DNA from: an uncultured delta proteobacterium
GTDB lineage: Bacteria; Desulfobacterota; Syntrophobacteria; Syntrophobacterales; Syntrophobacteraceae
NCBI GenBank assembly: GCA_963813125.1
Contig: CAWEZA010000054.1
Location: 1 to 64,000 of the forward strand
Direction of reading: 5' to 3'
DNA length: 64,000 nt
Position numbers and translations under genes: made by a program. The notes below the pieces were generated by a model, which saw only the letters and a list, made by a program, of their open reading frames with translations, searched no databases and was not told the origin of the DNA. Below, one piece after another: positions 1 through 23,714 of the stretch (the first letter of the stretch is position 1; each line of letters begins with the position of its first letter).

Positions 1-301
1 CACTGCTCTCCTTCTTCGGACTGCGGAACTGGCATCGTGCTGCGGAGATTCCCTACGCGGCGTCGCTCATCGTAGCCTCGCGGCCCGGTCAGCCGCTCGA
101 CGGATTGAAGGCGGCGCTGCCCGAGGGCCTTACGCTTGAGCCTTTGCCGGCCGGCAATCGAATGGCGGCCAGCCGCGAGGTCCGCGCCTTCCATCTTGTG
201 AATCCCGCTGGAGCGCTCCAAAAACGGCCCGAGCATCAGCATCTTCTCCTGCTTTCGCTCGATGATTTCGGTTGCCGTTCGAACGGTGTCCAGTTGCGCG
301 A

Positions 302-1471
302 TCATGAGGAATAGATCGGCGAAAAACGCCTGTATTGATCCTCATCCTCGCATTTGGCTATCTTTTCCTCGGCCCCCTGGATATTCGGAGGCACTTGGTA
401 TGCGGGTTTAAAGCCGCTTTGGGCCATGTTGGCCACGTATGTCACGCCACCCGGCAGCAAAGACGCCGGCTCGTTTTTCATCGAAACGTCGGCGACCATC
501 GGAGGATTCAATACCTTGTCGATAGCCTGGGCAGTGCGCATTTCGAGCTGCTGGAGCATCTTGGAACTCGCCAGCGCGTCCATCCCCGGAGCTTCTGCCG
601 TAGGAGTCGTTCATGAGCACACGACCACCTGGGCGCGACAAAGGGCAGCTCGTAATATCCCCGAAGATCGAGCACAAGCCCTGGTTCTGCCCCCACTCCC
701 AAATGACCGATCGAAACTTCCGACCTTTAAGTCCCGGGACCTGCGGAGCGCGGTCGTCGTTTGGCTCTATCGCCTGCGCGACCCTCACCTCTTTATCGAG
801 CTGTCCTGAGCCTAAAGGGACTGGACCTGTGGACTGCAGTTCTCGAGTCCGAACCTCTCGCACGACCTGGCCGGTTGTCAGCACATATTCCCGTAAGAGT
901 ATCGATCTCGTTTCGCCCCGAACTGCTCAAATAGTATTCGCCGGCCGTAAGGTCTGGCACCGGATGACGTCCTCGAAATCGTCCTCGATCATCATCACCC
1001 CGTCCCGAAGCAGCCCAACTCCTCGTAGATGACGTGCAGGGAGTTATAGGCGTTGCTCTGCGAGAGCACGGCCAGGATGCGCTTTGTGACCTCATCGAGC
1101 CACAGTCTCACCGGGGTATTATCGTGACACGTCCATGTCCCGGACCGATAGCCGAAACCAGGGCCGCGCCGGGCTGGTAAGTCCCGCCATGAGCCCCGCG
1201 GAAAGCGTCCTGAAGCGCAAAAATCGGAGTCTCGTTGATGATCCGGCGACCCTACGGGATCTCCCCTTGTCGCCTGGTTCGGAGTCATGAGATATCGTCC
1301 GCGCCTTGGCAGGATGAAGTCGGACAATTGCCTCCAGTGCTGCCACCAGCTCCAGCGGTCAACCCTCATAGCAACAAGCCGTTGATCGACATATTGCCGA
1401 AGCTGCCTTACTTTGGGGCTCCCGCCCTGGGCAAATATCGTTGGAGTCTGCGAAGGTCGATTCTCGGCCAT
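302..1471 (-). pseudogene. Fragmented phage late-gene ORFs across at least three frames (995..1471, 408..884, 302..583); position downstream of terminase suggests a portal remnant
   Basis: Overlapping minus-strand ORFs in different frames sit directly downstream of the terminase genes in a prophage late operon. I recognise no specific motif; the call rests on position and fragmentation. Confidence 0.3.
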
Positions 1472-1608
1472 CTAGTTTCGATACTCCCTGTCGTTCAGCC
1501 AGAGGAGTATTTGGTCAAGGCAAATGCCGGCTTTACGAGACCGGGCGCAGTTTGGCGCTCACCGGGTAAGCAAAGCTGATGGCAAGGCAATCGGCCCGGT
1601 TTGGCGAT

Positions 1609-2947
1609 CTAAGCCCGCGCTTCTTCATCGCGTTTTTGGGCTCGATCTGAATCTTCCCGTCGACTTGGCACAGTCTCCGGCCCGATCAGATCGTTATAGA
1701 GAGCGGTATCCTTCGGGATCGCGCCGCCCGCTTTCAACCAGTCGCGCATGAGCTTCCACATCTCGGCCCGCTTGTTCGAGCATCCCAGATCCGCAGACGC
1801 CCCGGCAAACCATACAAGTTGCCAGTTCCTCCCAAAGGTCCGTCCGGCGGAAACGATTCCCGTCCCGTAGCCGGCATCGATAAATACGGCGTCTGCCTTT
1901 TCCTCGTCTTCCAGCCTGCCGATAATGTTGGCAATCTCTATGTCGTTGTCGTTTTTGGCAATCACCCTCAGGATGGAAAACGCCAGCCCCTGCCGCAGGC
2001 CTATCACCAGTTCATCGTCACCCTCCCACGCGGGGTCAACCGATAGTATCTTGGGCGCGAAATCATATTGATCGACCCTCAAATGCCGACCAAATGCCGC
2101 ATCGACATCCGCAACGGAAATAAACTGCTTGGCTGACATTGACGGAAATACCCCCCTCACCTGACCTTGAAAAAGTCGGAATCCTCGCCGTAATCGTCCA
2201 CCCACTGCTCGATTTGTTTTTTATTGGTCAGCGCGCATGTCCTCGAGTCGATCTGGCGCGAGTTCCACCTCGCCGAATGCTGCCCGTAAAACAATCCTTG
2301 AACCTGCCGCTGTTTCGCGTCGGGTTTCCAAAGACACACCACAGGATTTCAGTCCCCTCGTCGGTCAGCGCTCCTTCGCTCACCTCCCAGATCACGTCCG
2401 GAATGGCGCTGGCCTCATCGAAGACGAGCAATATGCGTCTTCCTTTGTTGTGAAGGCCGGCGAAGGCTTCGGTATTCCTTTCGTTCCAGGGCACCTGGTC
2501 GATTCGCCAGGTCGTCTTGTGCCCGGCCTCACGCGAAACGATGGCGTTGGTCCCGAGGTCGAAAAGGCGGGACATATACCAGCATCTCCGATACCAGGTC
2601 GAAACCTCGGGCCATGTTTTAGTTTTGAGCTGCTTTTCGGTGTTGGCGCTCACAACGCCCCGGGTGTCCGGAAACGTCGAGATGGCCCAAAGGATGAGCC
2701 ACGAGACAAGACATGATTTTCCGATTCCATGCCCGGACGCGATCGCTTCGCGAATGATCGCTCCCGCGTCTCCGCCGGCGCGAAGCTTTGCGCCAATATC
2801 CTTGAGGGTATCGCGCTGCCAGTCATCGGCTCCCTCGCACTCCTCAAGCTCCCCTTCGCCCCATTTGAACGAAAACCGCACCCACCCGAGCGGGTTTTTC
2901 GAATAGCGTCCAAGTTTGGCGATAAGAGTTTTCGACTCCTTATCCAT
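1609..2947 (-). pseudogene. Phage terminase large subunit with an apparent frameshift (ORFs 2228..2947 and 1609..2205)
   Basis: The upstream ORF carries Walker A-like ASGHGIGKS and Walker B-like ILLVFDEAS of a terminase ATPase domain. The downstream ORF (FIDAGYGTG..., Asp/Glu-rich) looks like the nuclease domain. The two are in different frames (742 nt offset) with a junction near 2205-2330. Confidence 0.75.
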
Positions 2948-3398
2948 CGCGCTTGATCGCCTCCATGAGTTCTTTTGCGAAATCCGTCAACCCCGGTGTC
3001 TCCACCTCGAGCCGGTCTCCGTATTTTTTAGGAAGTAGTTTTCCGAGTAACCACTTCCTTGCGTCGACTTGCAGCTTACTGCGCTCGACCATGTCGCCGG
3101 TCGTAACTTCTTTTTTCCCGTCGACATCCTTCGTCTTCTTCTCGATCCGGCTCTTGTCGGCGATCTCGATTATCTCGTCGGCATACCCTTCGGCCTGTAT
3201 CTCTCGCGCGGCCGCGTACTGAGTGCGGAACTTTTCGTCCTTACCAAGCGCTCTTAAAACCGCCGACTTGTCCGGCATATCCTTCGCCCGGCAAATCGAC
3301 CGCAGGCTTTCGCCTTCGGCGATCCGTCGACATATCTGTCCCTTCATCGCGGCCGTAAGTTTGGGAGGCCGCCCCCGCGGCGGCTTGGTCGCGCCCAT
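2940..3398 (-). CDS. Phage terminase small subunit (N-terminal HTH)
   Basis: A 152-aa protein with an N-terminal HTH-like region (PPKLTAAMKGQICRRIAEGESLRSICR). It lies immediately upstream of, and overlaps, the terminase large subunit in the same orientation. Confidence 0.65.
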   Translation of the reverse strand: MGATKPPRGRPPKLTAAMKGQICRRIAEGESLRSICRAKDMPDKSAVLRALGKDEKFRTQYAAAREIQAEGYADEIIEIADKSRIEKKTKDVDGKKEVTTGDMVERSKLQVDARKWLLGKLLPKKYGDRLEVETPGLTDFAKELMEAIKRDG

Positions 3399-3736: not shown

Positions 3737-4162
3737 TCAGGCGCTCTTTGCCGCCTGCAGCACCAGGTCCTCTTTCGCCCCGCCAAAGGGCTTTATGACA
3801 AAATTTTCCCCGCGCTCGAACCGGGCGATATCACCAATTATTTCAGCGATCTTCTCGCGCTCGGCGAGGATCGCGCGCTTATCGATCTCCTTTTTTATCC
3901 GCACAAACCGCTTGAGCTTCCTCGCGAGCAGCATGTCGACGACCGCGCCCGCCTCCAGGTCGCCGAACGAAACGCTCCACGGACGCTGTCTCCAGCACAC
4001 TTCACCCGTGCCAAAAGATGTCGTCTTGCCACTTGCGGTAAGCTCTTCCTTGTGCACTTCGCAAAACCCCAGGACCGCGGCCGCAAGAACCTCTATGTGC
4101 TCGGTAATCTCGTTTACAACCGGGTCGTGAATAGCCCGAAGCGCCGCGATCTTGTCGGCCAC
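3737..4162 (-). CDS. gam: Mu Gam-like host-nuclease inhibitor / DNA-end binding protein
   Basis: A 141-aa protein. The segment GFCEVHKEELTASGKTTSFGTGEVCWRQRPWSVSF...RFVRIKKEIDKRAILAE aligns closely with Mu Gam (GWCEANRDELTNGGKVKTANLVTGDVSWRVRPPSVSI...RFIRTKQEINKEAILLE). Confidence 0.8.
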   Translation of the reverse strand: MADKIAALRAIHDPVVNEITEHIEVLAAAVLGFCEVHKEELTASGKTTSFGTGEVCWRQRPWSVSFGDLEAGAVVDMLLARKLKRFVRIKKEIDKRAILAEREKIAEIIGDIARFERGENFVIKPFGGAKEDLVLQAAKSA

Positions 4163-4287
4163 TAGCGCTTCGATCCCGCTTCTTTTCCCTGCAGAGCGGC
4201 AATATGTTCGATCACGGCCGAAACCTCATCTCGGGTCTTCGGCATTAAGCAGATCGGCATGGGTGCCTCCAAATATTGGGGTTTGTC

Positions 4288-4533
4288 TTAAAAAAGAGGA
4301 TTTGCGAGAAATGTTCGTTCTAAAACGGAGGGGGAGCTGGTGGCCGCTGCCGCGGTCGCCGAGCGCCTCACAAACGCACCGCAGCCGCCCCAGCGCGGGT
4401 CGTGAACCTGGTCGAGGCTCACAGCCGAATCGTCTATGACCTTGCCGCACCTCTCGCAATAGAAGAGCGCGGGCCGTCTCGTCCATCCGGCTAGCTCGCT
4501 TGGCAGTAACGTCGCTACGTGCGCTTCGGCCAT
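4288..4533 (-). CDS. Hypothetical small protein with a CxxC pair
   Basis: An 81-aa ORF containing CERCGK, in phage context. Confidence 0.3.
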   Translation of the reverse strand: MAEAHVATLLPSELAGWTRRPALFYCERCGKVIDDSAVSLDQVHDPRWGGCGAFVRRSATAAAATSSPSVLERTFLANPLF

Positions 4534-4696
4534 ATCTCACCCCAGCGCGTCAAAACATTGACAGATTCACCCGGATGGTGCGATACTCGAAGGATAAAGG
4601 ATATGTCCCACCGCGCGGCATGGCGCAAATGGCAATAAAAGCGGCAATAGATGTGGCATCTAGTAATGGCAATACAAGCGGAAAAAGGAGGGATCC

Positions 4697-4990
4697 GTGC
4701 AAAACCAAACATCTATGGAAGCTCCAAGCGAAAACCACTACGTAGGCCTTGAGGAAATCCTGCACCAGGCGCTCACCCACGCCAAAGCCCAAGGACAATC
4801 CGGCCTGGACTGGGAGGCGCAGCGCCCATGCGAAATAGGCCGCAACTTGTCGCCAGACTATGAGTTCGGAATGGCGATCGAGGCGATCTACCAGGCGGCC
4901 GAGGCCGTCCGCACAAATCGCTGTCCACGCGAGCACGTCTATATGGCGATTAATTTTGCGTGCGCAGCACTCATCGTCTCGCAAGGATAG
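4697..4990 (+). CDS. Hypothetical phage protein
   Basis: A strong RBS (AAAAGGAGGG) precedes a GTG start. The ORF is 97 aa. Confidence 0.4.
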   Translation: MQNQTSMEAPSENHYVGLEEILHQALTHAKAQGQSGLDWEAQRPCEIGRNLSPDYEFGMAIEAIYQAAEAVRTNRCPREHVYMAINFACAALIVSQG

Positions 4991-4999
4991 GGGTGCTCG

Positions 5000-5224
5000 A
5001 TGGATGATAAGAGTCTTTTAATCGGCTGGAATGAAATCGCAGGTTTTCTACGGTGTTCGGAAAGGACCATGCAAAATCGAAAGCACGAGCTCCTCTCCGC
5101 CTCTATTATTTTCTACCGCAGGACCCAAACGGGCAAACGTGCGGTGTGCGCATGGAAAACGGATCTTAGGAAATGGTCAAAAACCGGATCACCGGAGCCG
5201 CCGTCTTGCAATGAGAACGCCTGA
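5000..5224 (+). CDS. Excisionase/AlpA-like HTH DNA-binding protein
   Basis: LIGWNEIAGFLRCSERTMQNRKHELLSASIIFYRR resembles the excisionase-family/MerR-like HTH followed by basic residues. Confidence 0.5.
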   Translation: MDDKSLLIGWNEIAGFLRCSERTMQNRKHELLSASIIFYRRTQTGKRAVCAWKTDLRKWSKTGSPEPPSCNENA

Positions 5225-5467
5225 GGATCATCACCACTTACTCCAATGGTCGTGTTATGTGACATGCTCCGCGTGTTATGTGAGATCGCGTCCTCGCGCG
5301 CGCGTAATGGTCGACAAATTCCGGCGCCTCATGCCAATATTTGCCCCCCGATTGCGCCCGCGCTCCGAAGCCAAGCCCACGTGTTGTAGAGCGTCTGCCA
5401 ATCCCGGCAGTTTCCCGAGCAAAACGGGTAATCCTCCAGACTCTTCGCTTCCTGACACCAAGGGCAC

Positions 5468-6661
5468 TCACCCCTGACCGCCTTCCGTTTTTTCAATCCC
5501 ATCCCCCTCTTTGGAATTATTTTCAGGAATATTTCCAGCCCCGTTTTTTTGTTTTACCCCGCCGACAACACCAAACTTGACCAGAAATTTCGACAACTGG
5601 ACATCCACGTCCTCCAAATCCTCGCCGCTCGCGGGTTCCTCCACGGGCGCCTCGGCCTTTTTCCTTTTCTCCGCCGCCAGTCTTCCCGCCTCGGACGCGG
5701 CCCTTGCGGCAGCCCGCTCCTTCCTTGCATAATCTTTCAGGAGCGACCCCATGAGAAACTTCCAGAAAATGTCGTCGGGGTCCTGCCCGTGCCGCGCGGC
5801 GCTATTGACATGCTCGCGCACCGAATAAACGACATTTGAGCGCACAAACTCGTAATTTTTTATCATCTCGAACCGCCGCAGGAGCACGGCCAGGTCCCCC
5901 TCATTACGGTGTCTCTCGGGGATGAGTCCCACCAGGTCCACAAAATACCCCGTGACGCCGGCGGGATCACGCCGATCCCGCGCCGTGCCCGGCATACACA
6001 TCTGTCCCGATCGTTCGGCAATCCCGGGCATAAAGCTCACTTGCGAACCTCCCGTGACGCCTTTCTTCGCCGTGTCCTTAACGTTTACGTCGTTTTTATA
6101 TGCATTAGAAACGACGTAAACGTTAACGTGTTCCGGTGACGCTTCGGTGACGCTCGGCTGAGGCGTCACAAAAGCCTCCTCGCCCCCCCTTGACCTATCC
6201 CCAGAAACCCGCGCGGATAGCGCTTCCCGCCTCAAAGACAAAGCCGTGCCCGACCCGCATGTGACGCTCGGTGACGCCTCGGTGACGCTTGAAACCGGCG
6301 TCACATGAGCGTCACGCCCCGAGGCCGAGGCCTTTTCCATGCGCCTTCTTTCGCGCATTCGCCGCATGCGCTCAGTCGAGCCCCCGCGCGTGTAGCTCCG
6401 TTTCTTGAACTCACGCAGCGACCAGCACCCCTCGCGCTTTACCGCGACCTGGTGACGCTCCCATTTGCGCGTAACAGCGTCCCACCTCTCGGCCGGACAT
6501 CCCACGGCGACCCGAAGCACCTCCTCGGGCATCCCCGCGGCTTCTCCGTCCGCCTCGAGCATATGGAACCTGAGCAGCCAGTACGCCTCATCGGCCTCCA
6601 GGCTCGCGGCATACGGGCTCGAAAGCCAACCCCTGCAAAACGCGGCAGATAGTCCGGCCAC
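5468..6661 (-). CDS. Putative phage replication-associated protein with iteron-like repeats inside the coding sequence
   Basis: A 397-aa ORF with a low-complexity middle (HVTPVSSVTEASPSVT / FVTPQPSVTEASPEHVNV) encoded by repeated GTGACGC motifs. It sits in the early region between the recombination genes and the excisionase-like gene. No catalytic motif was recognised. Confidence 0.4.
   Translation of the reverse strand: MAGLSAAFCRGWLSSPYAASLEADEAYWLLRFHMLEADGEAAGMPEEVLRVAVGCPAERWDAVTRKWERHQVAVKREGCWSLREFKKRSYTRGGSTERMRRMRERRRMEKASASGRDAHVTPVSSVTEASPSVTCGSGTALSLRREALSARVSGDRSRGGEEAFVTPQPSVTEASPEHVNVYVVSNAYKNDVNVKDTAKKGVTGGSQVSFMPGIAERSGQMCMPGTARDRRDPAGVTGYFVDLVGLIPERHRNEGDLAVLLRRFEMIKNYEFVRSNVVYSVREHVNSAARHGQDPDDIFWKFLMGSLLKDYARKERAAARAASEAGRLAAEKRKKAEAPVEEPASGEDLEDVDVQLSKFLVKFGVVGGVKQKNGAGNIPENNSKEGDGIEKTEGGQG
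6054..6315. promoter_or_regulatory. Iteron array (6 direct and 3 inverted GTGACGC copies at ~10-12 bp spacing) plus a 15-bp perfect palindrome with an AT-rich spacer (6080..6124)
   Basis: Direct GGTGACGC copies lie at 6054, 6135, 6146, 6261, 6271 and 6283, and inverted GCGTCAC copies at 6163, 6298 and 6309. AACGTTTACGTCGTT-N15(TTTATATGCATTAGA)-AACGACGTAAACGTT is a perfect inverted repeat. Confidence 0.55.
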
Positions 6662-7620
6662 GCCTCCCCCCTTTCCATAAAAAAAGGTGACGCGGTTTCC
6701 CGCGCCACCTCCTCACCTACCAGTAAGCCCCGGACGCAATAGTCCCCGTTTCAGATGCGCACGAAAACCCCGCCGGGCAAAACCTCCTCGTCGGATAAAA
6801 GCCCGCGCCAAGGCACGCCTGCCCGCAATACAAAAAGGGCGCAAACCTTTCTTCGTTGTACGCCCTGGTCCATCCCCGCCGAAGCCTCTGAGACCGCAAT
6901 ACGTTTCTACCCACGATACGCATCGCCCGCTCCTCTCTGTTTCCTTGCCTCGGAAGTGTTTCTACAGTAAGATCCGCACTCAGAGCACCCAATCGATCCA
7001 GCCGGCGCCCCTGGCGCAATCAGCGCCGCCAGGGGACTGCCGGCCCCTTTCACCCGGCAGATATCCGGCACTCCCGACCGACCGCATCGCACGCAAACCA
7101 CGGCCCTCGATCCTCCCGGATCGGCCGTCCTCCATCGCGCCGCTCCACACAAGCAGCTCATCGCCATAAGTCCTCCTATCTCACAGGAATAACGGCGTTT
7201 CCCCCTACCTGCCCTTGCTTTTCGAACGGACGCCTCCCGGCCCCGCCGGCTGCGGCGTCGAGGCCGGAAAACGCCCCTAAAAGATGGGTGGCTCTATTTC
7301 CTCCACGTCCTTCTCCTTGCTCCTCCAGGTTTATGCCGGTCTCTCCCGGCCGTCACGGGGATCGCGGTGTGGGACATACCCCCGTTACTCCTTATGTGCC
7401 GCCGCGATCGGCCGAAGTGGCACAGAGCACACGGAGAGCAAAAAGCATGGGCAGGTTGGACCCTGGGTCTCAGTGCTGCGTGTTTCCATGTCTTTTCTCC
7501 CCCCGTGCCCCTGTGCCGCCGCGATCGGCTCCATCTTCGCCTGGGCGATGCTACGATGGATTCCTTCTCGATCGTCTTTCGACTAGACCGGCCCTGTAGG
7601 ATGCACCGCTAAAATCCGCC

Positions 7621-8091
7621 TTACCCTTCCCCACCATTCTCACGCGCAAACTTGAACCGAGGATCGGTCAGAAATTCGCGAAAAGACAACCCGCGAAAGA
7701 CGTCACGAACAAGAAGAAACCTCCTGTAGCGCAGCCTCGCGCGCGAGGGCCGCTTCCGTGCGACGAGAACGGCCCGGCATCGCCTACAGCTCGGAGTCCC
7801 GTTGTTAATAAGACTCATCTGCAATTGGACGGCGCGAGCGCCGCACAGACAACGCTTCCCGTCCTCATAAAGATGTGTCGTGTGATGATTCCAGAGCATT
7901 ATCAATGGAGTTCCTCCCGCGTCGCAGATCGCGGCCAGGCTGCTTTCCGGATCCGGAGCGAGAATGCGTTCGAGTTTGGGCGCGATCGCCATCGCGATCG
8001 GTGCGGACCGCCCGGGATTGCTCGGATGTCGCAGCGCGAGCTGCACGTTCGCGATCACGAAAAAAGTTCGAGCCGGCTCATGCCGAGGCAA
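7621..8091 (-). CDS. Hypothetical phage protein
   Basis: A 156-aa ORF in the phage early region. No motif was recognised. Confidence 0.3.
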   Translation of the reverse strand: MPRHEPARTFFVIANVQLALRHPSNPGRSAPIAMAIAPKLERILAPDPESSLAAICDAGGTPLIMLWNHHTTHLYEDGKRCLCGARAVQLQMSLINNGTPSCRRCRAVLVARKRPSRARLRYRRFLLVRDVFRGLSFREFLTDPRFKFARENGGEG

Positions 8092-8151
8092 ATAGTCCGC
8101 CCCTCCGCGTGATCAGCTATAAGTTCTTCGATGGTTGCGCTTATCTCTTCG

Positions 8152-8772
8152 CTACTTGGCATCGGAGACCTCCACGAGCGACAACTCATTTTTTAGGATC
8201 CGCCCAAGCTCGCAGGTGGGGATAAGAGCAAGAAGGCTATCGATCTGGCCCCGGGTCAGACACACGACCTCTCCGGGCGCAAGCTGCGGTGTATCCATGG
8301 AATCCGATTCGGGCGCCTGGGGGGTAAGAACTTGCGGCGCTGCTTCAGGCGGCGCGATCGCGGGGATCGCCGCCGGCGAGGAGGAAAGTAGCCTGGCCGG
8401 GGACACTTGAGGCAGTTCCTGTGCTTCCTGAAGGCAAGCGGCTTTTTTTGCCGCCCGTTGGCGCTTGACTCGCTCTTTTTGCTCGGGAAGTTTTCTGTAG
8501 CAGGTGGCGCAAAGGCCGTGTCCCATTATATTCATTTCCCTGCCGCAGCCGGGGTAGCCTTCCTTCCGGCCGCAGATTCCCATTCTTGCCATATCTTTCC
8601 TTTCCTGCCGCAACTCCGGAGTTTGAAAATTCGAGATTCCGATCAGCGCATGCCGGTACGGAAGCGGTGGGGCGGTCGCGCCGGTCACCGGCTCCCGGAT
8701 GTTTTGCGTCTCGGCCGTGCGGCGCATGCGTCTTATCCGCTCGGCCGCCTCGGATGGGGAGAGCGCTTTCAC
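8152..8772 (-). CDS. Hypothetical protein with a zinc-ribbon motif
   Basis: CGRKEGYPGCGRE...CATCYRK is a C4-type motif. The ORF overlaps the ERF gene's stop by 4 nt in operon-like fashion. Confidence 0.45.
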   Translation of the reverse strand: MKALSPSEAAERIRRMRRTAETQNIREPVTGATAPPLPYRHALIGISNFQTPELRQERKDMARMGICGRKEGYPGCGREMNIMGHGLCATCYRKLPEQKERVKRQRAAKKAACLQEAQELPQVSPARLLSSSPAAIPAIAPPEAAPQVLTPQAPESDSMDTPQLAPGEVVCLTRGQIDSLLALIPTCELGRILKNELSLVEVSDAK

Positions 8773-9416
8773 AGTGTCCCCTCCTTTTTCTTCAGCTCGT
8801 TTAAAACGCGCGTAAATTCCTCCTGGATTTTTTCGCGCTCGGCCGAAGCCTGGATTTCTCTCCGGAAGTTATTGCGCCAGTCAATGCACGCCTTGGCGGT
8901 CGTAAAACCCTTCAAACTCACCGCCGCGGCGGCAAGCGAGAGCGGCTCGCCCGTAGAAGTCCCGCTTGTCCTGAGCGCCCCGGGCGCCGGCTCATCCTCG
9001 GTCTCGGCCGCGATGCCGAGAATCGCCATGAGTGCGTGGCGCCTTCCGAAGGTAAAGGAGGCCGCTGCCTGCTGCGGGCCGGTCTTTCGCGGGTCCTTGA
9101 CGTCCAGGGGCATCAGCAGCTCCCCCCGGATCCATTCACCCGACGAATGGATAAGCGTCGTGATAACGACGACGCCTTCGAGCTGCGAGCGCCCCCCGCT
9201 CGTCTGGGTAAGCAGCTCGCAACGCGCCTCGCTCGTCTGCACCAGGGCGAGGGCATTATCTGCAAGCGGCTTTCGCACGGCCTCGAGGATAGCGGCAAGA
9301 TCGGCGTATTTGCTGCCCAGGTGCGAATTGTCGGAGTCCCGGCGTATGACCGGAAACGCGGCCTGCGCGGCGGCCAGGGCTGTGAAGATTTCCTTTACCG
9401 ACTCGGAGGTTTTCAT
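8769..9416 (-). CDS. ERF-family single-strand annealing (recombination) protein
   Basis: MKTSESVKEIFTALAAAQAAFPVIRRDSDNSHLGSKYADLAAILEAVRKPLADNALALVQ matches the conserved ERF N-terminal core (KYADLasvldavrp). The start was chosen at the internal Met with an ATGA overlap to the upstream gene. Confidence 0.8.
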   Translation of the reverse strand: MKTSESVKEIFTALAAAQAAFPVIRRDSDNSHLGSKYADLAAILEAVRKPLADNALALVQTSEARCELLTQTSGGRSQLEGVVVITTLIHSSGEWIRGELLMPLDVKDPRKTGPQQAAASFTFGRRHALMAILGIAAETEDEPAPGALRTSGTSTGEPLSLAAAAVSLKGFTTAKACIDWRNNFRREIQASAEREKIQEEFTRVLNELKKKEGTL

Positions 9417-9672
9417 CGCGCCCCCTTCGCTCCGGCCTGAAGATAGCGGTGCATGCGCCCCGATGACAGCGCCGCGCGCTCGGCCAGGGTGGGAAAGGAC
9501 TCCTTCTCGCGGCTCGCTATCAGCATCCCGCAGCGGCACATGACGTGGACGCGTTCACTGCCGAAAACGTCCCGAGTCACGCCAATGAGCGTCGCCGAGT
9601 GCGAGCAGTCCGCCGGCCGCCGGAAAACCTCCGTATTTTGTTGATTCTTTCGATCGCATGCTTTAATTTCCA
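9413..9672 (-). CDS. Hypothetical Cys-containing small protein
   Basis: An 86-aa ORF containing CDRK...CSHS...CRCG. Its stop overlaps the ERF start (ATGA). Confidence 0.4.
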
Positions 9673-10372: not shown

Positions 10373-10647
10373 GGTCCTTCGGCGCTGGTTCTGGATCGAT
10401 CTTTCCTCATCGCGCTCACCTGGCCGCGCTCATTTCATGCTCGACACAAAAACCGGCGTTCTCGTCTGTATAAAAAAGCCCGTTCACAATGTAGCCCCCT
10501 GAAACCGGATAACCGTCGCAAAGGGCGCAGGGCTCAAAGAGGGGACCGGCCGACGCCGGCGCGGCCGCGGCTTTCATCGAAACTGATTGACCGATTACCT
10601 GCATCGTACTTTTCCCTTCCTTGTTGGTCGTTTTGGGTGATCCGGTT

Positions 10648-11756: not shown

Positions 11757-11810
11757 ACTATAAACTCCTTTGTGTAGTGTTGAAGACATTATAAATCGGG
11801 ATTCCGAACA

Positions 11811-12146
11811 GTGTCAACAAGAAAAAGTCGTAATGTCGAACAAAAAATTGGGGCTCGCCTCCAGGCCTTCAGAAGGGAAAAAAGCTACTCGATAAGGCGA
11901 CTCAGCGAAATAACTGGGATAGCCGCTTCAACGCTTTCCGAAATCGAGACGGAAAAATATGAACCTGGAGCGCAAAAGCTTCAAGATCTCGTTCGTAAAA
12001 CCGATCTGAATGCACTCTGGCTGCTGACAGGCGAGGGGGAAATGCTCAGGTCGGCGATCCAGGCGCAGGCCGCCCCGGTGTCCGAGGAGGAAAGGGCGCT
12101 CGCCGATCTCCTCTCCGAGGGCCAAAGCTGTCCTGGTGTCCGATGA
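11811..12146 (+). CDS. XRE-family HTH transcriptional regulator (CI/Cro-type)
   Basis: IGARLQAFRREKSYSIRRLSEITGIAASTLSEIE is an XRE HTH. The gene is divergent from the 11511 gene across a 54-bp intergenic region. Confidence 0.7.
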   Translation: MSTRKSRNVEQKIGARLQAFRREKSYSIRRLSEITGIAASTLSEIETEKYEPGAQKLQDLVRKTDLNALWLLTGEGEMLRSAIQAQAAPVSEEERALADLLSEGQSCPGVR

Positions 12147-12385: not shown

Positions 12386-14030
12386 GTGAAACAGCGCCTC
12401 AATGAAACAAATGAAAGGAGGAGGGGGCAAATCCCCGCCGGCGACAAAATGATCCGTCTCATGAAAAATGCGTCATACGAGGTGCAAGCGCTTTTTGAGT
12501 GGATCGAATACATCCTGGAGGCGCGCAAAAACAAAAAGAGCGGAAAACCGCCGCCAATCCGGGCAGGCAGGGAGTATCGCGAGGCGCTCAAAGCCATCAA
12601 TGATGGCGAACCGATTATATTCGTATCGGGAAGGGCTGGAACGGGCAAGACGTGCTTGATCGAATTTCTTCAGAAAAAACTCTCCCAACGAAACATTGCG
12701 ATCGTTGCGCCAGCCGGAGTCGCCGCCCTTAACTTGCCGCGGGCGCACGATACACTCCTTCTTTCGATTCAGCCGCGATATCGACCTCAAAAGAATACAG
12801 ACGGTCAAGAACAAAAAACAAAGGCTACAATATGAAAAGCTCGATCTGCTCATCGTAGATGAAGTCTCCATGGTGCGAGCGGACTTTGATGGACGCTATG
12901 GTGAAATTCCTCGAACTCAATGGGAGGCAGCCCGGCGCTTCGTTCGGCGGCGTTCAGGTGGTCCTGATCGGCGATCTTTTACAGCTTCCACCCGTCGTAA
13001 AATGGAAGAATAAGCTTGACAAGGAAAAGTTTGATAAGAAAAACGGGGTGTACGCCAGCAGGTACTTTTTCGGCGCAAAATTTTTGGAGGGTTCAAAGGA
13101 GAGTCCAACACCCTACTTCATAGAGCTTAAGCAAAATCGACGACAGAAAGACCGTAAATTCCGAGAGTGCCTTGATAGCATACGGATCGCGGAAGGCCAC
13201 ACCGAGGCAGTCGAGACAATCAACGCGAGTTGCCACCGAAGGGACAACCCGGACGGAAGCACTCTCGTTCTGACATACACCAGGAAAGATGCCGCGAGAA
13301 TTAATAACGATAAAATCCATGAGTTGGCCAAGCCCCGACAACCGGCGCTATTTCAGGCACAAACAGGAGGCAAATCCCGCTGCAGGACGACAATGAGGGA
13401 GACGAAGAGAACAGACACCCATATTGTCCCGCACCGAGGGAGCTAAAGCTCGCAAAGGGGGCGCCGATCATGTTTATTCTAAACGATAAAGACGGAAAAT
13501 GGGTCAACGGCACCCTGGGAGTGGTCGAATCAGTCCCAAGCGACTTTGGCCCTCCGATCGTCGTAGTGCTAAAGGACCGCCCCACGGTGAAGATAGAGGT
13601 TGAACCTGAAACATGGTGGTTTGACAAAGAATACTCCCCCATTGAACCCGAAGACAGTGAAAAGTTTGATACCTATAAACAGTATCCAATCATGCTGGCA
13701 TGGGCCGTTACAATACATAAGGCCCAAGGCCTTACGCTAGACAGCGTCGGGATTGACCTGGGCAAGGTAAAGGATAAGGGCGACAAGGAGCAAGAAAGGG
13801 CAATCTCGGAGAAAGGTCTATTGTATGTGGCTCTCAGCCGCTGCAGGTCCCTCGCTGGCATAAAACTGGAGAACAAGATCAAGGACTCGGATATCAAGGC
13901 AAGCGAGGAGGCATGTGAGTATTACTGCAAGCTCAGGGCTTACCAATCACAGCGATCCGCCCGATTTAAGCCCTACTGTCCCCCCTCTGCCAAGGCTCAT
14001 CGCGTGAAGGACTCGCCGATAAATCTCAGG
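12386..14030 (+). pseudogene. PIF1/RecD-like helicase disrupted by three frameshifts (ORFs 12386.., 12696.., 12859.., 13470..)
   Basis: Walker A GRAGTGKT, Walker B LLIVDEVSMV, GGVQVVLIGDLLQLPPV and the C-terminal AVTIHKAQGLTLD...YVALSRCR motifs fall in four different frames (2, 0, 1, 0). Confidence 0.75.
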
Positions 14031-14037
14031 CGTTCGG

Positions 14038-14207
14038 TGAATGTACAAGCCGCGAAAGCAAGGAGGCGATTCTCTGAAATTATCGAGCGGGCGGGCTGCG
14101 GACGAGAGCGCATTGTCCTGACAAGGCGAGGCAAGCCGCGCGCAGTCCTCGTATCGATCGAGGATCTCAAGTTACTCGAAGATCGTGTTGACAGTGATAA
14201 TGAATGA
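14038..14207 (+). CDS. Phd/YefM-like antitoxin N-terminal domain (possibly truncated, orphan)
   Basis: RFSEIIERAGCGRERIVLTRRGKPRAVLVSIEDLKLLED matches the Phd/YefM core (ITRRGKPVAVLVS). It reads in frame with the helicase tail, and a GTG start at 14038 was assumed. Confidence 0.4.
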
Positions 14208-14351
14208 AATCCCCGAAAGGGAAGGGCGGCCGCAGGCGATCCGCACCCCGGCCCCGGCCCCCTTGACGCCGGCATCCGGAAAGTGTACCGTTGAATACAC
14301 ATTGCAGTGTGATCGGAACGCGCGGCGGACCATCAAAGGGAAGGATTGCCA

Positions 14352-14624
14352 ATGCTTAGTGTGCAACTCGATGAAGGCCTCGAAAAAAGATTCGAGCAAC
14401 TCTGCGCGGCGGTCAAAAGAGACCGGGAAGACTGCCTGCGCGAGGCGATCGAGCAGTATATGGAGGACCTGGAGGATATCATCGTCGCGACCAGGCGGCT
14501 AAATGACGATGATGCCGAAACCTCTGAAATTATGGCGGATGCCGGCCTGATGGAATCGATCCGAGAGGGCAGGGACCAGGCAAGACAAAGGATCGGCCGA
14601 CGCATTGAAGAAATCGACGTCTGA
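14352..14624 (+). CDS. Ribbon-helix-helix antitoxin (RelB/ParD/CopG-like)
   Basis: MLSVQLDEGLEKRFEQLCAAVKRDREDCLREAIEQYMEDLED is an RHH fold signature. The stop overlaps the toxin's start (ATGA). Confidence 0.7.
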   Translation: MLSVQLDEGLEKRFEQLCAAVKRDREDCLREAIEQYMEDLEDIIVATRRLNDDDAETSEIMADAGLMESIREGRDQARQRIGRRIEEIDV

Positions 14625-14946: not shown

Positions 14947-16218
14947 TCAAACCGGCCCCTCCGCCTCCCCACGCTCCACAGTCTGCCCCGCGCCCTCCGC
15001 GATCTCTCCTATCGCCGTTCCCTCCGGAGTGGACAGCATGGCCTGCAGGGCCATGGCGGCGTTGCGCTTCTGGTCCGGGCAAAGATGCGCGTATCTCTCC
15101 GTCTGCTCGATCTTGCCGTGCCCCATCAGCTCCTTTATCGTCTGAAGGCTAGCTCCCGATATCGCAAGCCAGCTCCCGAAGGTGTGCCGCAGGGAATGGA
15201 AAACGAGCTTGTGCCGCCTGTCCCTGACTCCGGCGTTTAGCCCCAGGTCCTCGACGGCTTTGAAAAAACTCCCGGAAACGCTTTTTATCTTCTTTCCGCC
15301 GCGGTCGGTGAAGACGTGTTCGTCCGGGCGGCCGCCCTCGGCGAAGACAACGGCCAGCTCGTCGGTCATGTACGCCTTCCGCGCGAGATCCCCCTTCGGC
15401 CCCCGCGAGTAGTCCGGCCCGAGGATGTGGATCGTCCTGTCTTTGACATCGACGTCGGCCCACCGGAGGTTCCAGATTTCTCCGGCGCGCATGCCCGTGT
15501 GAAGCCCCACGAGGCAAATTTCGTAAAGTCTCTGGCTGTACATCTGGACGCGCTGCAGCAAAAGGTGCGCCTCGCTTCGGCTAAGATATCTCAGCCTGTT
15601 CGTGTGCCGGGTGCTGGGGAACTTAATCCCCCGGGTAGGGTTTTCCCCGTGAAAGTCACCCCACGCGATCGCCTTGTTGATCACTTCGCGGGCAAGTCCC
15701 AGGACGTGCTTTATCGTTTGCGGGGAAAGCTTCTGCTTTGTGAGACCGCTCTTTATCCGCTCGAAGTGAAACGGGCTTATCTCCGAGAGCGCGAGATGCC
15801 CCAGGGCGTCCTTGAGATGCTTCTCATATCTCACCTTATCATCCCCGAAGCTGCGCCGGTTCACCTGCGCCCACTCGTAAAACTTCTCCCACGCCTCGGA
15901 AAAGGGCAGCTCCTTTTTCTCCCCGGGCAGCTCCTCTCCGTGCCTCATGGCCCGGATTCTCTCCGCGCGGATGTGCCCGGCCATCTGCGGCGTATAGCCC
16001 TCGCTCTGCCACCCGATCTTTTCCCACTTGAGCTTTCCGGCCCGCGTCTTGTAGCAGATGTCGTAGCACTTGTCGGGCTTTCCCAAATGCCTCCTCACCG
16101 CCGACTCCCGGACAAACACCCCGGTCCTGTGAGTCTTTTGCCTCGTCCCCGCCGCCTTGACCTCTCCAGCCTCTTTCACCGGCGCTCCCTTCCTTCGAAA
16201 AAAAATCGCACCCGTCAC
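14947..16218 (-). CDS. int: Tyrosine-type site-specific integrase
   Basis: The C-terminal catalytic region HSLRHTFGSWLAISGASLQTIKELMGHGKIEQTERYAHL gives the R...H-x-x-R...Y signature. The gene is adjacent to a tRNA 3' fragment. Confidence 0.9.
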   Translation of the reverse strand: MTGAIFFRRKGAPVKEAGEVKAAGTRQKTHRTGVFVRESAVRRHLGKPDKCYDICYKTRAGKLKWEKIGWQSEGYTPQMAGHIRAERIRAMRHGEELPGEKKELPFSEAWEKFYEWAQVNRRSFGDDKVRYEKHLKDALGHLALSEISPFHFERIKSGLTKQKLSPQTIKHVLGLAREVINKAIAWGDFHGENPTRGIKFPSTRHTNRLRYLSRSEAHLLLQRVQMYSQRLYEICLVGLHTGMRAGEIWNLRWADVDVKDRTIHILGPDYSRGPKGDLARKAYMTDELAVVFAEGGRPDEHVFTDRGGKKIKSVSGSFFKAVEDLGLNAGVRDRRHKLVFHSLRHTFGSWLAISGASLQTIKELMGHGKIEQTERYAHLCPDQKRNAAMALQAMLSTPEGTAIGEIAEGAGQTVERGEAEGPV

Positions 16219-20785: not shown

Positions 20786-22228
20786 TTGATAGAGTTGGAA
20801 CGCGGCGGCGATGAGTTGCTGCTTGTGAACTCTTTCCACATGCTTCCGCTATACGTGGCTCGCGGCAAAAAGGGTGTGAAGCGCGTACTCTCACAGGTCG
20901 GGGGCAAAACGTTTGAAGAGCTCCTGGCCTTATTCTCCGGGGACACGGACCTCATCCGAATGCTCAGGGACCATCGCATCCTTGTCGATTCCTCCCGCGA
21001 GAAGGAGCGGTGTGAGCGCACGGGCATCGACGCGGCTTTAGCCGCGCCACCTCTGCCCAAGAACAAGATGACCGTTTTCCTCCTGATTACTGAATCATGC
21101 AACCTTGGTTGTGTATATTGCCTTAACGGCTCGGGGACTTATCGCAAAAGCCCGGGCGCGCTCATGAGCCCCCAGGTCGCCATGCGCAGCATCACGGCGT
21201 GCCTGGATCAACTTGGCGCCGGCGGCACCCTTCAAGTGACCTTCTTTGGGGGCGAACCGCTCCTTAATTGGCCCCTTGTAAAAGAGGTGATAAAGCAATG
21301 CGAGCAATTACCCGGGCAGACGTATGGCGACAAGAAGATTGCATATCATATAACCAGCAATCTGACCACATGCCCTCCCGATCTGATCGAAACGCTAAAA
21401 AAGCATAAAATCACCGTCTTATCCGATATCGACGGGCCCCCGGAAATTCATAACCGTTGCCGTCCCTTTCTGCGCGGCGGAGCTTCTTATGCCCGGAGTG
21501 CGGAAACTATACGCAGGTTGGTAGACGCCGGAATACCGGTAGCTCTGCGCGCTACGCTTACTTCCGTCAATCAGGACTGCGTCGCTGATATTGCCGCCCA
21601 CCACAAGGCGCTCGGCGCCGGTAATTGCGGCCTTGTGCCGGTCTGCCAAATCAATTCCGATCGGCAATACCTGCCTGAGTGGCTTCTGCCCGATCCGGAC
21701 AGGATTATCGCCGGGGTGGTGAATGTATATCGCAGTGGATTATGGGAAAGGACGAAGCTCTTCCCGTTCAACCAATATGTTTTGAAATTGCGTCCCGGCT
21801 CGCGGCAGACTGTGGGCTGCGCGGCTCCCTCGGGCGCCGTTCCGGTCATCAACGCCAACGGAGACGTTTACCTGTGCGCCTATCTTGTCGGCCAGGAGAA
21901 GTTCCGCTATGGAACGTCGTCAAACGCATGGGACCGGCGGTTGCTCGAAGAAACGTCGGCCTCACTGCATGTCGATAATCTCCCGGGGTGTAGCGCATGT
22001 CCCTGGCGATACGCGTGCGGAGGTGGATGCCCGGTGATGAGACTGGGGTTTTACGAAGTGGAAAAAAACCCTGTGGCCGCGGAATATGGACGGAGAATCG
22101 TCTGCGATTTTAGCAGGGCAGTTTTGACCGAGTGTCTTTGGGACGTGGCGGACAATGTGTCGGCCTCCATTGCCGAGGGGCGGGGGCAACACCGTGGACC
22201 GGCGCTCGACCCAACGCTTTTTTGCTGA
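20786..22228 (+). CDS. Radical SAM/SPASM-domain peptide-modifying enzyme with an N-terminal RRE-like domain (paralog 1)
   Basis: The CX3CX2C motif is SCNLGCVYC. The C-terminal SPASM cysteines are CAAPSGAVPVINANGDVYLCAYL...GCSACPWRYACGGGCPVM. The N-terminal ~90 aa (LERGGDELLLVNSFHMLPLYV...TFEELLALF...ILVD) is PqqD/RRE-like. The only canonical start is a TTG with a GAGGT SD. Confidence 0.85.
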   Translation: MIELERGGDELLLVNSFHMLPLYVARGKKGVKRVLSQVGGKTFEELLALFSGDTDLIRMLRDHRILVDSSREKERCERTGIDAALAAPPLPKNKMTVFLLITESCNLGCVYCLNGSGTYRKSPGALMSPQVAMRSITACLDQLGAGGTLQVTFFGGEPLLNWPLVKEVIKQCEQLPGQTYGDKKIAYHITSNLTTCPPDLIETLKKHKITVLSDIDGPPEIHNRCRPFLRGGASYARSAETIRRLVDAGIPVALRATLTSVNQDCVADIAAHHKALGAGNCGLVPVCQINSDRQYLPEWLLPDPDRIIAGVVNVYRSGLWERTKLFPFNQYVLKLRPGSRQTVGCAAPSGAVPVINANGDVYLCAYLVGQEKFRYGTSSNAWDRRLLEETSASLHVDNLPGCSACPWRYACGGGCPVMRLGFYEVEKNPVAAEYGRRIVCDFSRAVLTECLWDVADNVSASIAEGRGQHRGPALDPTLFC

Positions 22229-22274
22229 AACAAAAGAGGAGTTCCCCTTCTCGGACTCTGCATCGGGGTACCCC

Positions 22275-23714
22275 ATGAGGGCTCAAGTGTTGCTCGAATT
22301 GACCAAAAACCTGATCTCCCTGGAAAGGGGCCGCGACGAGTTGCTCCTGGCAAACTCGTTCCACATGATGCCTCTATATGTTAAGCGGGGCAGGGAGCGT
22401 ATAAAGGGCGTGCTCGACCATGCATCCGGCGGACGCACGGCAGAAGAGTTGGAAGCGGCATTTCCGGGGGATGTCGGCCTCATCGAGCTCCTTCGCGATA
22501 ATCGCATTTTGGTCGACAAGTCATTTTACCCCGACGGGTTCGATCTCGCAGATATCGCGGCGGAAAAGATCCAGTCCGGCCCCCGGGAGAGGATCACGCT
22601 TTATCTGCTGCTTGGCGAATCCTGCAACCTGGACTGCATCTACTGCCTGAACGGACCCAAGACATACCGGAAAAATCACGCAGAGGGGATGGGCGCGCGG
22701 ACTGCCCTGAGAAGCATCGAGAAATGCCTGGAGGAACTCGTTCCCGGAGGCGTGGTGGAAGTCGGTTTTTTCGGGGGCGAGCCTTTACTTCACTGGCCGG
22801 TGGTCAAGCAGGTGATAAGCCGTTGCGAAAGTGAGATCGGGCCGGCAAACCCCGATAAAAAAATACGATATCACCTTACCAGCAATCTGACACTGTGTCC
22901 ACCAGACCTGGTCGAATGGGTGACACGCTACAAGATTACAATAGTCTGCGGGATCGACGGTCCACCGGAGATTCACGACCGATGCCGGGTCTACCGCGGA
23001 GGCGCCCCGTCTCATGCGCGCAGCGCGGACACTATACGCCGGCTTGTGCAGGCCGGAGTACACCCCACCTTGAGGGCAACGATCACTTCAGCCAACCATG
23101 ACCGGTTGCACGAAGTAGCTGCGCACCACACCCTGCTTGGAGCCGCCGCCTCGCTGTTTATCCCGGTACGCCCCATTAATTCGGACAGCGAGTTTTTCCC
23201 GGAACAGATCCTGCCCGACCCGGAAAAAATCATTTGCGCCGCAGTCGAACTCGGTCTCGGCGATTCTTCGGGCAAGGCAAACCTATTTCCCTTCAATGAT
23301 TTTTCAGCCGATTTACGCCCCGGCGCCCGATATGTAGTCGCCTGCGGCGCTCCCCGGGGGGCCACTTACGTGGTGCGGCCCAACGGCGACATTTATCCCT
23401 GCATCTATCTCGTCGGCCAGAAACAGTACAGGCTCGGAAATGTGACCGGCATGCTGGATCGTAGGCCCCTTGAAGAAATGTTTACCGCTTTACACGTGGA
23501 TAACCGCGAAGATTGCCGGACTTGCGCCTGGCGGTATGCTTGCGGCGGCGGCTGCCCGGTCATGAATCTTGCGCGCATAGGCGGCGCCGAGAAGAGCGCC
23601 CGTGTGGTGGAGTACAGCCGCAGGATCACCTGCGACCTGAGCCGGGCGATCCTTTCCGACGCCCTCTGGCGTCTCGCCGACCGGGGCTTAAGCGGAGTTG
23701 CCGGACAAGTTTGA
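22275..23714 (+). CDS. Radical SAM/SPASM-domain peptide-modifying enzyme with an N-terminal RRE-like domain (paralog 2)
   Basis: GESCNLDCIYCLNG, CGAPRGATYVVRPNGDIYPCIYL, and CRTCAWRYACGGGCPVM. It is ~45% identical to paralog 1 over its full length. Confidence 0.85.
   Translation: MRAQVLLELTKNLISLERGRDELLLANSFHMMPLYVKRGRERIKGVLDHASGGRTAEELEAAFPGDVGLIELLRDNRILVDKSFYPDGFDLADIAAEKIQSGPRERITLYLLLGESCNLDCIYCLNGPKTYRKNHAEGMGARTALRSIEKCLEELVPGGVVEVGFFGGEPLLHWPVVKQVISRCESEIGPANPDKKIRYHLTSNLTLCPPDLVEWVTRYKITIVCGIDGPPEIHDRCRVYRGGAPSHARSADTIRRLVQAGVHPTLRATITSANHDRLHEVAAHHTLLGAAASLFIPVRPINSDSEFFPEQILPDPEKIICAAVELGLGDSSGKANLFPFNDFSADLRPGARYVVACGAPRGATYVVRPNGDIYPCIYLVGQKQYRLGNVTGMLDRRPLEEMFTALHVDNREDCRTCAWRYACGGGCPVMNLARIGGAEKSARVVEYSRRITCDLSRAILSDALWRLADRGLSGVAGQV

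Follow-up and report, generated by a model that had tools for sequence, protein, structure and literature searches.

The placement of a replication origin inside the gene of its own initiator is a design that is already known. Lambdoid phages have their replication origin in the middle of gene O, where iterons bound by O are combined with an AT-rich tract, and in Stx phages the O gene carries two extra iterons, with 13 extra residues in the protein (PMC7466680). In the RepA_N plasmid pSK41 the N-terminal domain of Rep binds Rep boxes that are located centrally within rep (PMC5703833; see also PMC7145576), the central segment of Rep encoded by the ori is a dispensable linker, and the C-terminal domain is essential and host-specific (PMC5703833). 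Theta replication of the Bacillus phage SPP1 starts at oriL (PMC5737612). Here we analyzed a 64-kb stretch of DNA from an uncultured delta proteobacterium (contig CAWEZA010000054.1, positions 1 to 64,000; in the following 'the window'), which contains a minus-strand prophage. Judged from the sequence, from a structure model and from the analogy with phage lambda, positions 6054-6315, or more fully 5952-6315, are probably the replication origin of this lambdoid-style prophage, situated inside its own initiator gene at 5468-6661.

The candidate origin is built of copies of the heptamer GTGACGC. We counted 17 copies in the window versus 7.15 expected from dinucleotide shuffles, and none of 100 shuffles reached this number. 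Twelve of the 17 copies fall within 5952-6693. The original prediction had reported nine copies in 6054-6315, six direct at helical-turn spacing and three inverted. Their positions were confirmed exactly, with six copies on the plus strand (6054, 6136, 6147, 6261, 6271 and 6282) and three on the minus strand (6163, 6298 and 6309); at the background rate of the window the Poisson probability of at least nine copies in 262 bp is 4e-20. Neighbouring copies of the same orientation are 10-11 bp apart and therefore lie on one face of the helix. Three more copies that flank the array, at 5952, 6452 and 6687, had been overlooked.

The array had been described as embedded in an open reading frame (ORF) with a low-complexity middle part. 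This ORF is real, intact and full-length, and the N-terminus of the encoded 397-aa protein, VAGLSAAFCR, is kept in relatives. A word-indexed search of 5.8 billion proteins returned only the protein itself and P0002 (52% aa identity), and when 1.84 billion representatives were searched exhaustively with a HMMER profile, only P0003 (31%) and P0004 (24%) joined them, which gives a family of four protein clusters in total. This candidate initiator family is new and very rare. Among the INPHARED phages we found neither a protein nor a DNA match, scans of genome contigs and viral contigs with protein patterns yielded no relatives, and a metagenome scan together with a search of viral contigs for the DNA pattern of triad plus palindrome (see below) recovered only the contig of L009. 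The three loci other than the window are:

L001: carries P0002; a syntenic prophage or phage contig
L009: carries P0003; a 17.5-kb IMG/VR viral contig
L011: carries P0004; a 1.6-kb contig with only the initiator-family gene

The initiator-family gene is the only gene known to be common to all four loci. Its DNA elements in the window, including those directly upstream of the start codon, are the following:

6680..6709, minus strand: terminator-like hairpin with a GC-rich stem, a GAAA loop and a U7 tail; ends ~18 nt before the start codon and holds the GTGACGC copy at 6687-6693
6452..6458, minus strand: half-site within the part coding for the N-terminal domain, read as the peptide WERHQ; kept in L001, possibly only through peptide conservation
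6261..6315, minus strand: distal iteron array, on the sense strand GTGACGC-N4-GTGACGC-N9-GCGTCAC-N4-GCGTCAC-N3-GCGTCAC; same order and spacing in L001 at 10377-10431
6136..6169, minus strand: proximal iteron triad, GTGACGC-N9-GCGTCAC-N4-GCGTCAC; separated by 9 nt from the palindrome, which lies downstream of it, and in register with the distal array at a distance of 135 bp
6078..6126, unstranded: AT-rich palindrome with ACGT-containing hexamers and a putative role in DNA unwinding or as a cruciform
6054..6060, minus strand: lone half-site closely downstream of the palindrome; sense-strand sequence GCGTCAC
5952..5958, minus strand: lone half-site at the boundary of linker and C-terminal domain; L001 has one in a similar place (gene position 722)

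In each of the four genes we observed arrays of the heptamer in the same segment of the middle part and, behind them, a palindrome that is low in GC and rich in ACGT. The expectation that the same repeats would be found in related phages was thereby borne out, as they are present in syntenic relatives and arrays occur in all three other members of the family. The proximal triad is kept in L001 and L009 and partly in L011. Window and L001 share the order of distal array, proximal triad and palindrome, their intra-array spacings are identical, and the inter-array spacer measures exactly 91 nt in both, with 48% sequence identity. When the two loci are compared in register, they agree at 56 of 56 heptamer positions but at only 12 of 33 positions of the intra-array spacers (Fisher p = 2.7e-12). 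L001 contains an extra triad, which adds 10 residues to its protein. In L009 and L011 the heptamer is changed by one base to GTAACGC/GCGTTAC, and since these two are the divergent members, the motif co-varies with the protein. The heptamer is translated in either orientation and in two or three frames, giving the peptides VTP, SVTE, ASP, RDAH, CDAP, CNAS, ALH and TLP, which argues that selection acts on the DNA site and not on the peptide.

Next to the proximal triad lies the palindrome. The inverted repeat of the original prediction is real, but its dimensions had to be revised: instead of 15-bp arms around a 15-nt AT-rich spacer we found perfect arms of 18 nt (6078-6095 and 6109-6126) and a spacer of 13 nt; it can also be scored as arms of 21 nt with one mismatch (95%) and a 7-nt loop. 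The palindrome is the stretch with the lowest GC content of the gene (32% versus 60%, measured in 50-mers), and equally AT-rich 50-mers make up only 0.17% of the prophage part. Its single-stranded DNA has a folding energy of -19.2 kcal/mol (z = -7.0). A low-GC equivalent is present in L001, L009 and L011, palindrome and spacing are kept across proteins of 24-53% identity, and nowhere in the gene is the nucleotide sequence better conserved than in the block that comprises triad and palindrome (82% identity). Two features of iteron-type theta origins were thus found at this locus, namely multiple phased short sites that are conserved in sequence and spacing, and an adjoining, easily melted AT-rich element that is conserved in all four loci.

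Looking at the palindrome arms alone (window 6078-6126; L009:4247-4297; L011:735-782), we observed that in every member of the family they are composed of three hexamers of the form ACGTWW, each with an ACGT. Instead of being mere AT-rich DNA, this sub-repeat may represent a second motif for protein binding or for unwinding.

To describe the gene product we used an AlphaFold model that was built on an alignment of four sequences (confidence given as the predicted local distance difference test, pLDDT). The parts of the gene are:

5468..6661, minus strand: putative replication initiator gene, 397 aa, GTG start
6323..6661, minus strand: part coding for the N-terminal domain (aa 1-113), with helices, a beta-hairpin (winged helix) and a basic helix; would bind the iterons
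5960..6319, minus strand: part coding for the disordered linker (aa 115-234), pLDDT ~30; contains both arrays, the palindrome and the half-site 6054-6060
5651..5959, minus strand: part coding for the helical C-terminal domain (aa 235-337), pLDDT 72-85; present in all four proteins

In the N-terminal domain the helices and the beta-hairpin cover aa 1-85 (pLDDT 72-87), and the basic helix covers aa 97-113. The segment predicted to be disordered coincides exactly with what the repeats and the palindrome encode, so that the low-complexity middle of the ORF is a repeat-derived linker with short VT-containing repeats; its identity to P0002 is only 20-40% on the amino acid level, while the heptamers there are invariant. 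Foldseek against the PDB gave 4pt7_B of the RepA_N initiator family as best match (E = 0.12), with N-terminal domains of staphylococcal RepA_N initiators among the top structural matches and MarR-type regulators at similar scores. In BFVD, Foldseek returned uncharacterised phage proteins (E = 2e-4) and then several DUF1376 or 'replication initiator' entries (2e-4 to 3e-2). According to the model, the N-terminal domain is a winged helix, which fits an initiator and is no proof of one. The helical C-terminal domain could not be assigned to any fold or family. The modelled three-part build of winged helix, repeat-encoded disordered linker and helical C-terminal domain, as in lambda O and pSK41 Rep, supports the assignment as an initiator.

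On the sequence level, none of the four proteins matched a Pfam family, including Phage_rep_O, RepA_N and DUF1376 (E <= 1-5), neither the 397-aa protein nor its relatives matched a PHROG family, and the family profile had no match among PDB sequences, including RepA, at E <= 10. A profile-level match to an initiator family, which had been suggested as a check, was hence not found; equally, the flanking domains were not assigned to any non-replicative family, an outcome that had been named as a possible refutation.

Comparing the locus to the described systems, we found a likeness to lambda O. In both cases iterons are followed by an AT-rich tract in the middle of the initiator gene, and with the same script we located the iterons of lambda at 0.39-0.48 of the O gene and the AT-rich minimum of this gene at 0.48, compared to 0.29-0.44 for the arrays and 0.44-0.49 for the palindrome at our locus. 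Extra iterons add linker residues in relatives of both, and the additional triad of L001 with its 10 residues parallels the Stx phages. In lambda the terminator tR1 precedes the replication genes, and here a strong terminator-like hairpin (6680-6709) stands ahead of the putative initiator gene. Its RNA folds at -25.8 kcal/mol (z = -5.6), and a comparable GC hairpin with a U5 tail precedes the L001 gene at the same place; by analogy with tR1, expression of the initiator gene may depend on read-through or antitermination. However, the family shows no sequence or profile similarity to lambda O (no match to Phage_rep_O, PF04492; hhalign of the family profile against O gave a probability of 0.3%). 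Lambda has four iterons of 18-19 bp, each a complete dyad, at intervals of ~20-24 bp, whereas the sites at our locus are 7-bp half-sites in convergent direct arrays with a spacing of 10-11 bp, divided into two clusters at a distance of 135 bp. Furthermore, our locus has a long perfect palindrome made of ACGT hexamers as its AT-rich element, and unlike in lambda no P-like helicase-loader gene is found next to the initiator gene.

The pSK41 arrangement is resembled in that the repeats lie in the middle of the gene and encode the predicted-disordered aa 115-234 between the N- and C-terminal domains. In contrast to RepA_N proteins, no match to PF06970 or to a RepA sequence of the PDB was obtained, and the likeness in fold is only that of a generic winged helix; moreover, our element is a prophage of a Gram-negative-type host (judged by the chromosomal FtsK and NuoLMN) and not a Firmicute plasmid, and sequence and layout of the iterons differ. 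DUF1376 proteins (YdaU-like, PF07120) were hit by Foldseek in BFVD at marginal values (E = 3e-3 to 9e-2), but there was no Pfam match and the structural alignments cross disordered regions with a very high root-mean-square deviation. In SPP1, oriL lies inside gene 38, which encodes the initiator G38P. The likeness here would be that of an origin tied to its initiator, and no PHROG family of replisome organisers was matched by our protein.

From these observations a way of initiation can be proposed. The N-terminal winged-helix domain of the 397-aa protein would bind the GTGACGC half-sites, which would act as convergent arrays whose orientation flips across a 9-bp gap; the co-variation of heptamer and protein provides indirect evidence for such binding. 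Since the arrays are in register at a distance of 135 bp (~13 helical turns), the bound protein could bridge or wrap the DNA, as in the O-some. The resulting strain would open the adjacent 49-bp AT-rich palindrome of ACGT hexamers or extrude it as a cruciform, and the helical C-terminal domain would recruit parts of the host replisome, namely helicase, loader or primase. A recruitment from the host is proposed because the prophage encodes no loader beside the initiator gene. We infer all three steps, namely that the sites are bound by the protein which the gene encodes, that the DNA unwinds at the palindrome and that a helicase is recruited.

In L009 we additionally observed a 387-aa gene directly after the initiator gene (L009:5111-6274, plus strand) with a weak 'D5-like' PHROG match (2.4e-6), which has no equivalent in the window or in L001. 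For this reason, helicase recruitment may differ within the family.

The genomic surroundings place the gene in the early/replication region of the prophage, between the ERF recombinase and Gam/small terminase. The recognisable features of the prophage are:

14947-16218: tyrosine integrase
12386-14207, plus strand: PIF1/UvrD-like (SF1B-type) helicase, fragmented
11788-11817, minus strand: perfect sigma-70-like promoter site (TTGACA-18-TATAAT) that points into the minus-strand early genes and is likely the early promoter of the prophage
8769-9539: ERF recombinase
about 3740-4186: Gam homologue
2940-3398: Sf6-type small terminase
1507-2962, minus strand: large terminase, split
210-1471, minus strand: P22/T7-type portal, split

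The ORFs directly downstream of the initiator gene (5238-5471, 4550-4984 and 4226-4540) have no Pfam or PHROG match, and the next recognisable genes are Gam and the small terminase. DnaA boxes (TTATCCACA) were not found with at most one mismatch from 3904 to 8216, and neither an Rfam family nor a tRNA was found. A literature search for the heptamer GTGACGC together with 'iteron' returned nothing relevant. The rest of the window (FtsK, NuoLMN and others) is bacterial chromosome. Taken together, the lambda O-like candidate origin of the original prediction is supported by the location in the early region of a prophage, the conserved arrays and palindrome, the three-part protein and the lambda-like position within the gene.

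Two further observations concern the neighbouring sequence. The last ~50 residues of the ORF 13470-14207 (plus strand), which follow a UvrD_C-like helicase remnant, match the Phd/YefM antitoxin family (1.4e-12); this part probably represents an antitoxin gene of its own that ORF calling has joined to the remnant, and 14185-14502 may contain a toxin. In the host part, 22155-23714 (plus strand) encodes a radical SAM/SPASM peptide maturase with best NCBIfam matches of the PapB and SCIFF types, all under the cut-offs, and may belong to a gene cluster for a ribosomally synthesized and post-translationally modified peptide.

Several points weigh against an origin at this locus. No sequence-level link connects the family to any characterised initiator in Pfam, PHROGs, the PDB profile search or the hhalign comparison with lambda O. 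The fold matches are those of a generic winged helix, with MarR regulators and methyltransferase dimerisation domains scoring nearly equally and no Foldseek match in the PDB below E = 0.1, and the structure model itself rests on only four aligned sequences. No helicase or loader gene adjoins the initiator gene. The inverted half-sites are 16 bp apart from centre to centre, which is not the usual one-turn spacing of a simple dimer. In the mRNA, too, the palindrome would fold into a hairpin, and it could play a part in translation. A GC-skew inflection, suggested by the original prediction as a check, was not seen: from 1 to 12 kb the skew is monotonically negative, does not turn at 6 kb and follows the coding strand, which is uninformative because the prophage is integrated. 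Finally, large terminase, portal and PIF1-like helicase are each broken over two to four frames and intact in relatives. The broken frames may reflect a decaying prophage or indel errors of the assembly, and as the prophage looks damaged the origin may no longer be used in the element of the window.

The exact arrangement of the proximal triad is not confined to this family. Searching for GTGACGC-N9-GCGTCAC-N4-GCGTCAC without mismatches, we found clustered arrays around AT-rich DNA in three unrelated loci of metagenome-assembled genomes:

L005 (Verrucomicrobiaceae), 83-496: arrays within and ahead of an ORF with a match to phrog_2509 'replication initiation protein' (2e-12); this ORF is followed by a DnaC/IstB-like ATPase
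L003 (Planctomycetaceae), 892-1192: array with mirror symmetry about an AT-rich centre; a D5_N/DUF5906 primase-helicase lies ~480 bp downstream of it
L004 (Terriglobales), 5479-5760: array on both sides of an AT-rich stretch, directly behind a 648-aa ORF

The 648-aa ORF of L004 has no Pfam family and shows a Walker-A-like motif by eye (GSTQSGKSS). The ORFs of L003, L004 and L005 gave no match to the family profile (hmmsearch), and hhalign found no similarity between the family profile and the L005 initiator. The recurrence of the triad beside replication genes supports an origin role. A bolder reading, which we regard as rather doubtful, is that the triad serves as a shared origin 'address' of unrelated mobile elements in Planctomycetota, Verrucomicrobiota and Acidobacteriota, read by at least three types of replication proteins. 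The types that would pair with it, a part of this reading that is just as doubtful, are the new family, the phrog_2509 initiator with a DnaC-like loader, and the D5-like primase-helicase.

Three other explanations have to be weighed against the origin. The first is that the array is an operator or roadblock for a regulator, either the gene's own product acting as autorepressor only or another DNA-binding protein of the phage, and controls transcription without being an origin. The winged helix is also the fold of MarR-type repressors, with nearly equal scores, the terminator-like hairpin directly ahead of the start codon contains one copy of GTGACGC, and L009 has a copy of the motif ~40 nt upstream of its start. 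However, the sites lie in the middle of the gene and not at a promoter, and neither the promoter-like site 11817-11788 nor the immunity region of L001 contains the heptamer, which weakens this alternative, raised already by the original prediction. A repressor requires neither a conserved AT-rich palindrome nor a conserved extra C-terminal domain, and the same triad stands beside replication genes in unrelated elements. We therefore consider a purely regulatory array unlikely; autoregulation as such is compatible with origin function, and the two are not mutually exclusive.

Second, the heptamers could be the target of a host factor or have a different function in cis (partition, pac or recombination site) instead of being iterons for the encoded protein. 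The exact triad is found in elements whose replication proteins are not detectably related, so that one common binder might exist, and the small terminase lies ~2.7 kb downstream. But the shift to GTAACGC in the two divergent members tracks the protein, and the sole gene known from all four loci is the one of the initiator family. A partition site is opposed by the lack of ParA/ParB genes, none of which were seen. The pac sites of Sf6/P22-type phages lie within the small terminase gene, so the location speaks against a pac site as well. This second explanation appears quite improbable to us. Third, it is barely credible that the repeats are a by-product of a low-complexity, VT-rich peptide linker, arisen by chance or slippage and devoid of function at the DNA level: although the region does encode short VT-containing repeats that are predicted to be disordered, the heptamer occurs in both orientations and in two or three frames that yield unrelated peptides, its positions are 100% conserved while the flanking codons diverge, and palindrome and spacing persist between proteins of 24-53% identity.

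An origin inside the initiator gene, as preferred here, would matter in several respects. It provides concrete candidates for an origin and an initiator in prophages of poorly studied and mostly uncultured bacteria, whose replication genes have no Pfam or PHROG annotation, and the ~1.2-kb gene is a candidate for a minimal replicon for genetic tools in such hosts. The design of lambda and the RepA_N plasmids, in which the origin lies in the linker-coding part, would recur in an unrelated protein family, and the constraint on the DNA level is directly visible in one heptamer that is read in several frames. The general understanding of replication initiation is unchanged by the finding. If the triad were indeed a shared address, this would point to a widely exchanged winged-helix reader module with divergent sequence or to a host factor that recognises the triad, and the element in the window would be one case of a cross-phylum origin code rather than a private pair of iterons and initiator.

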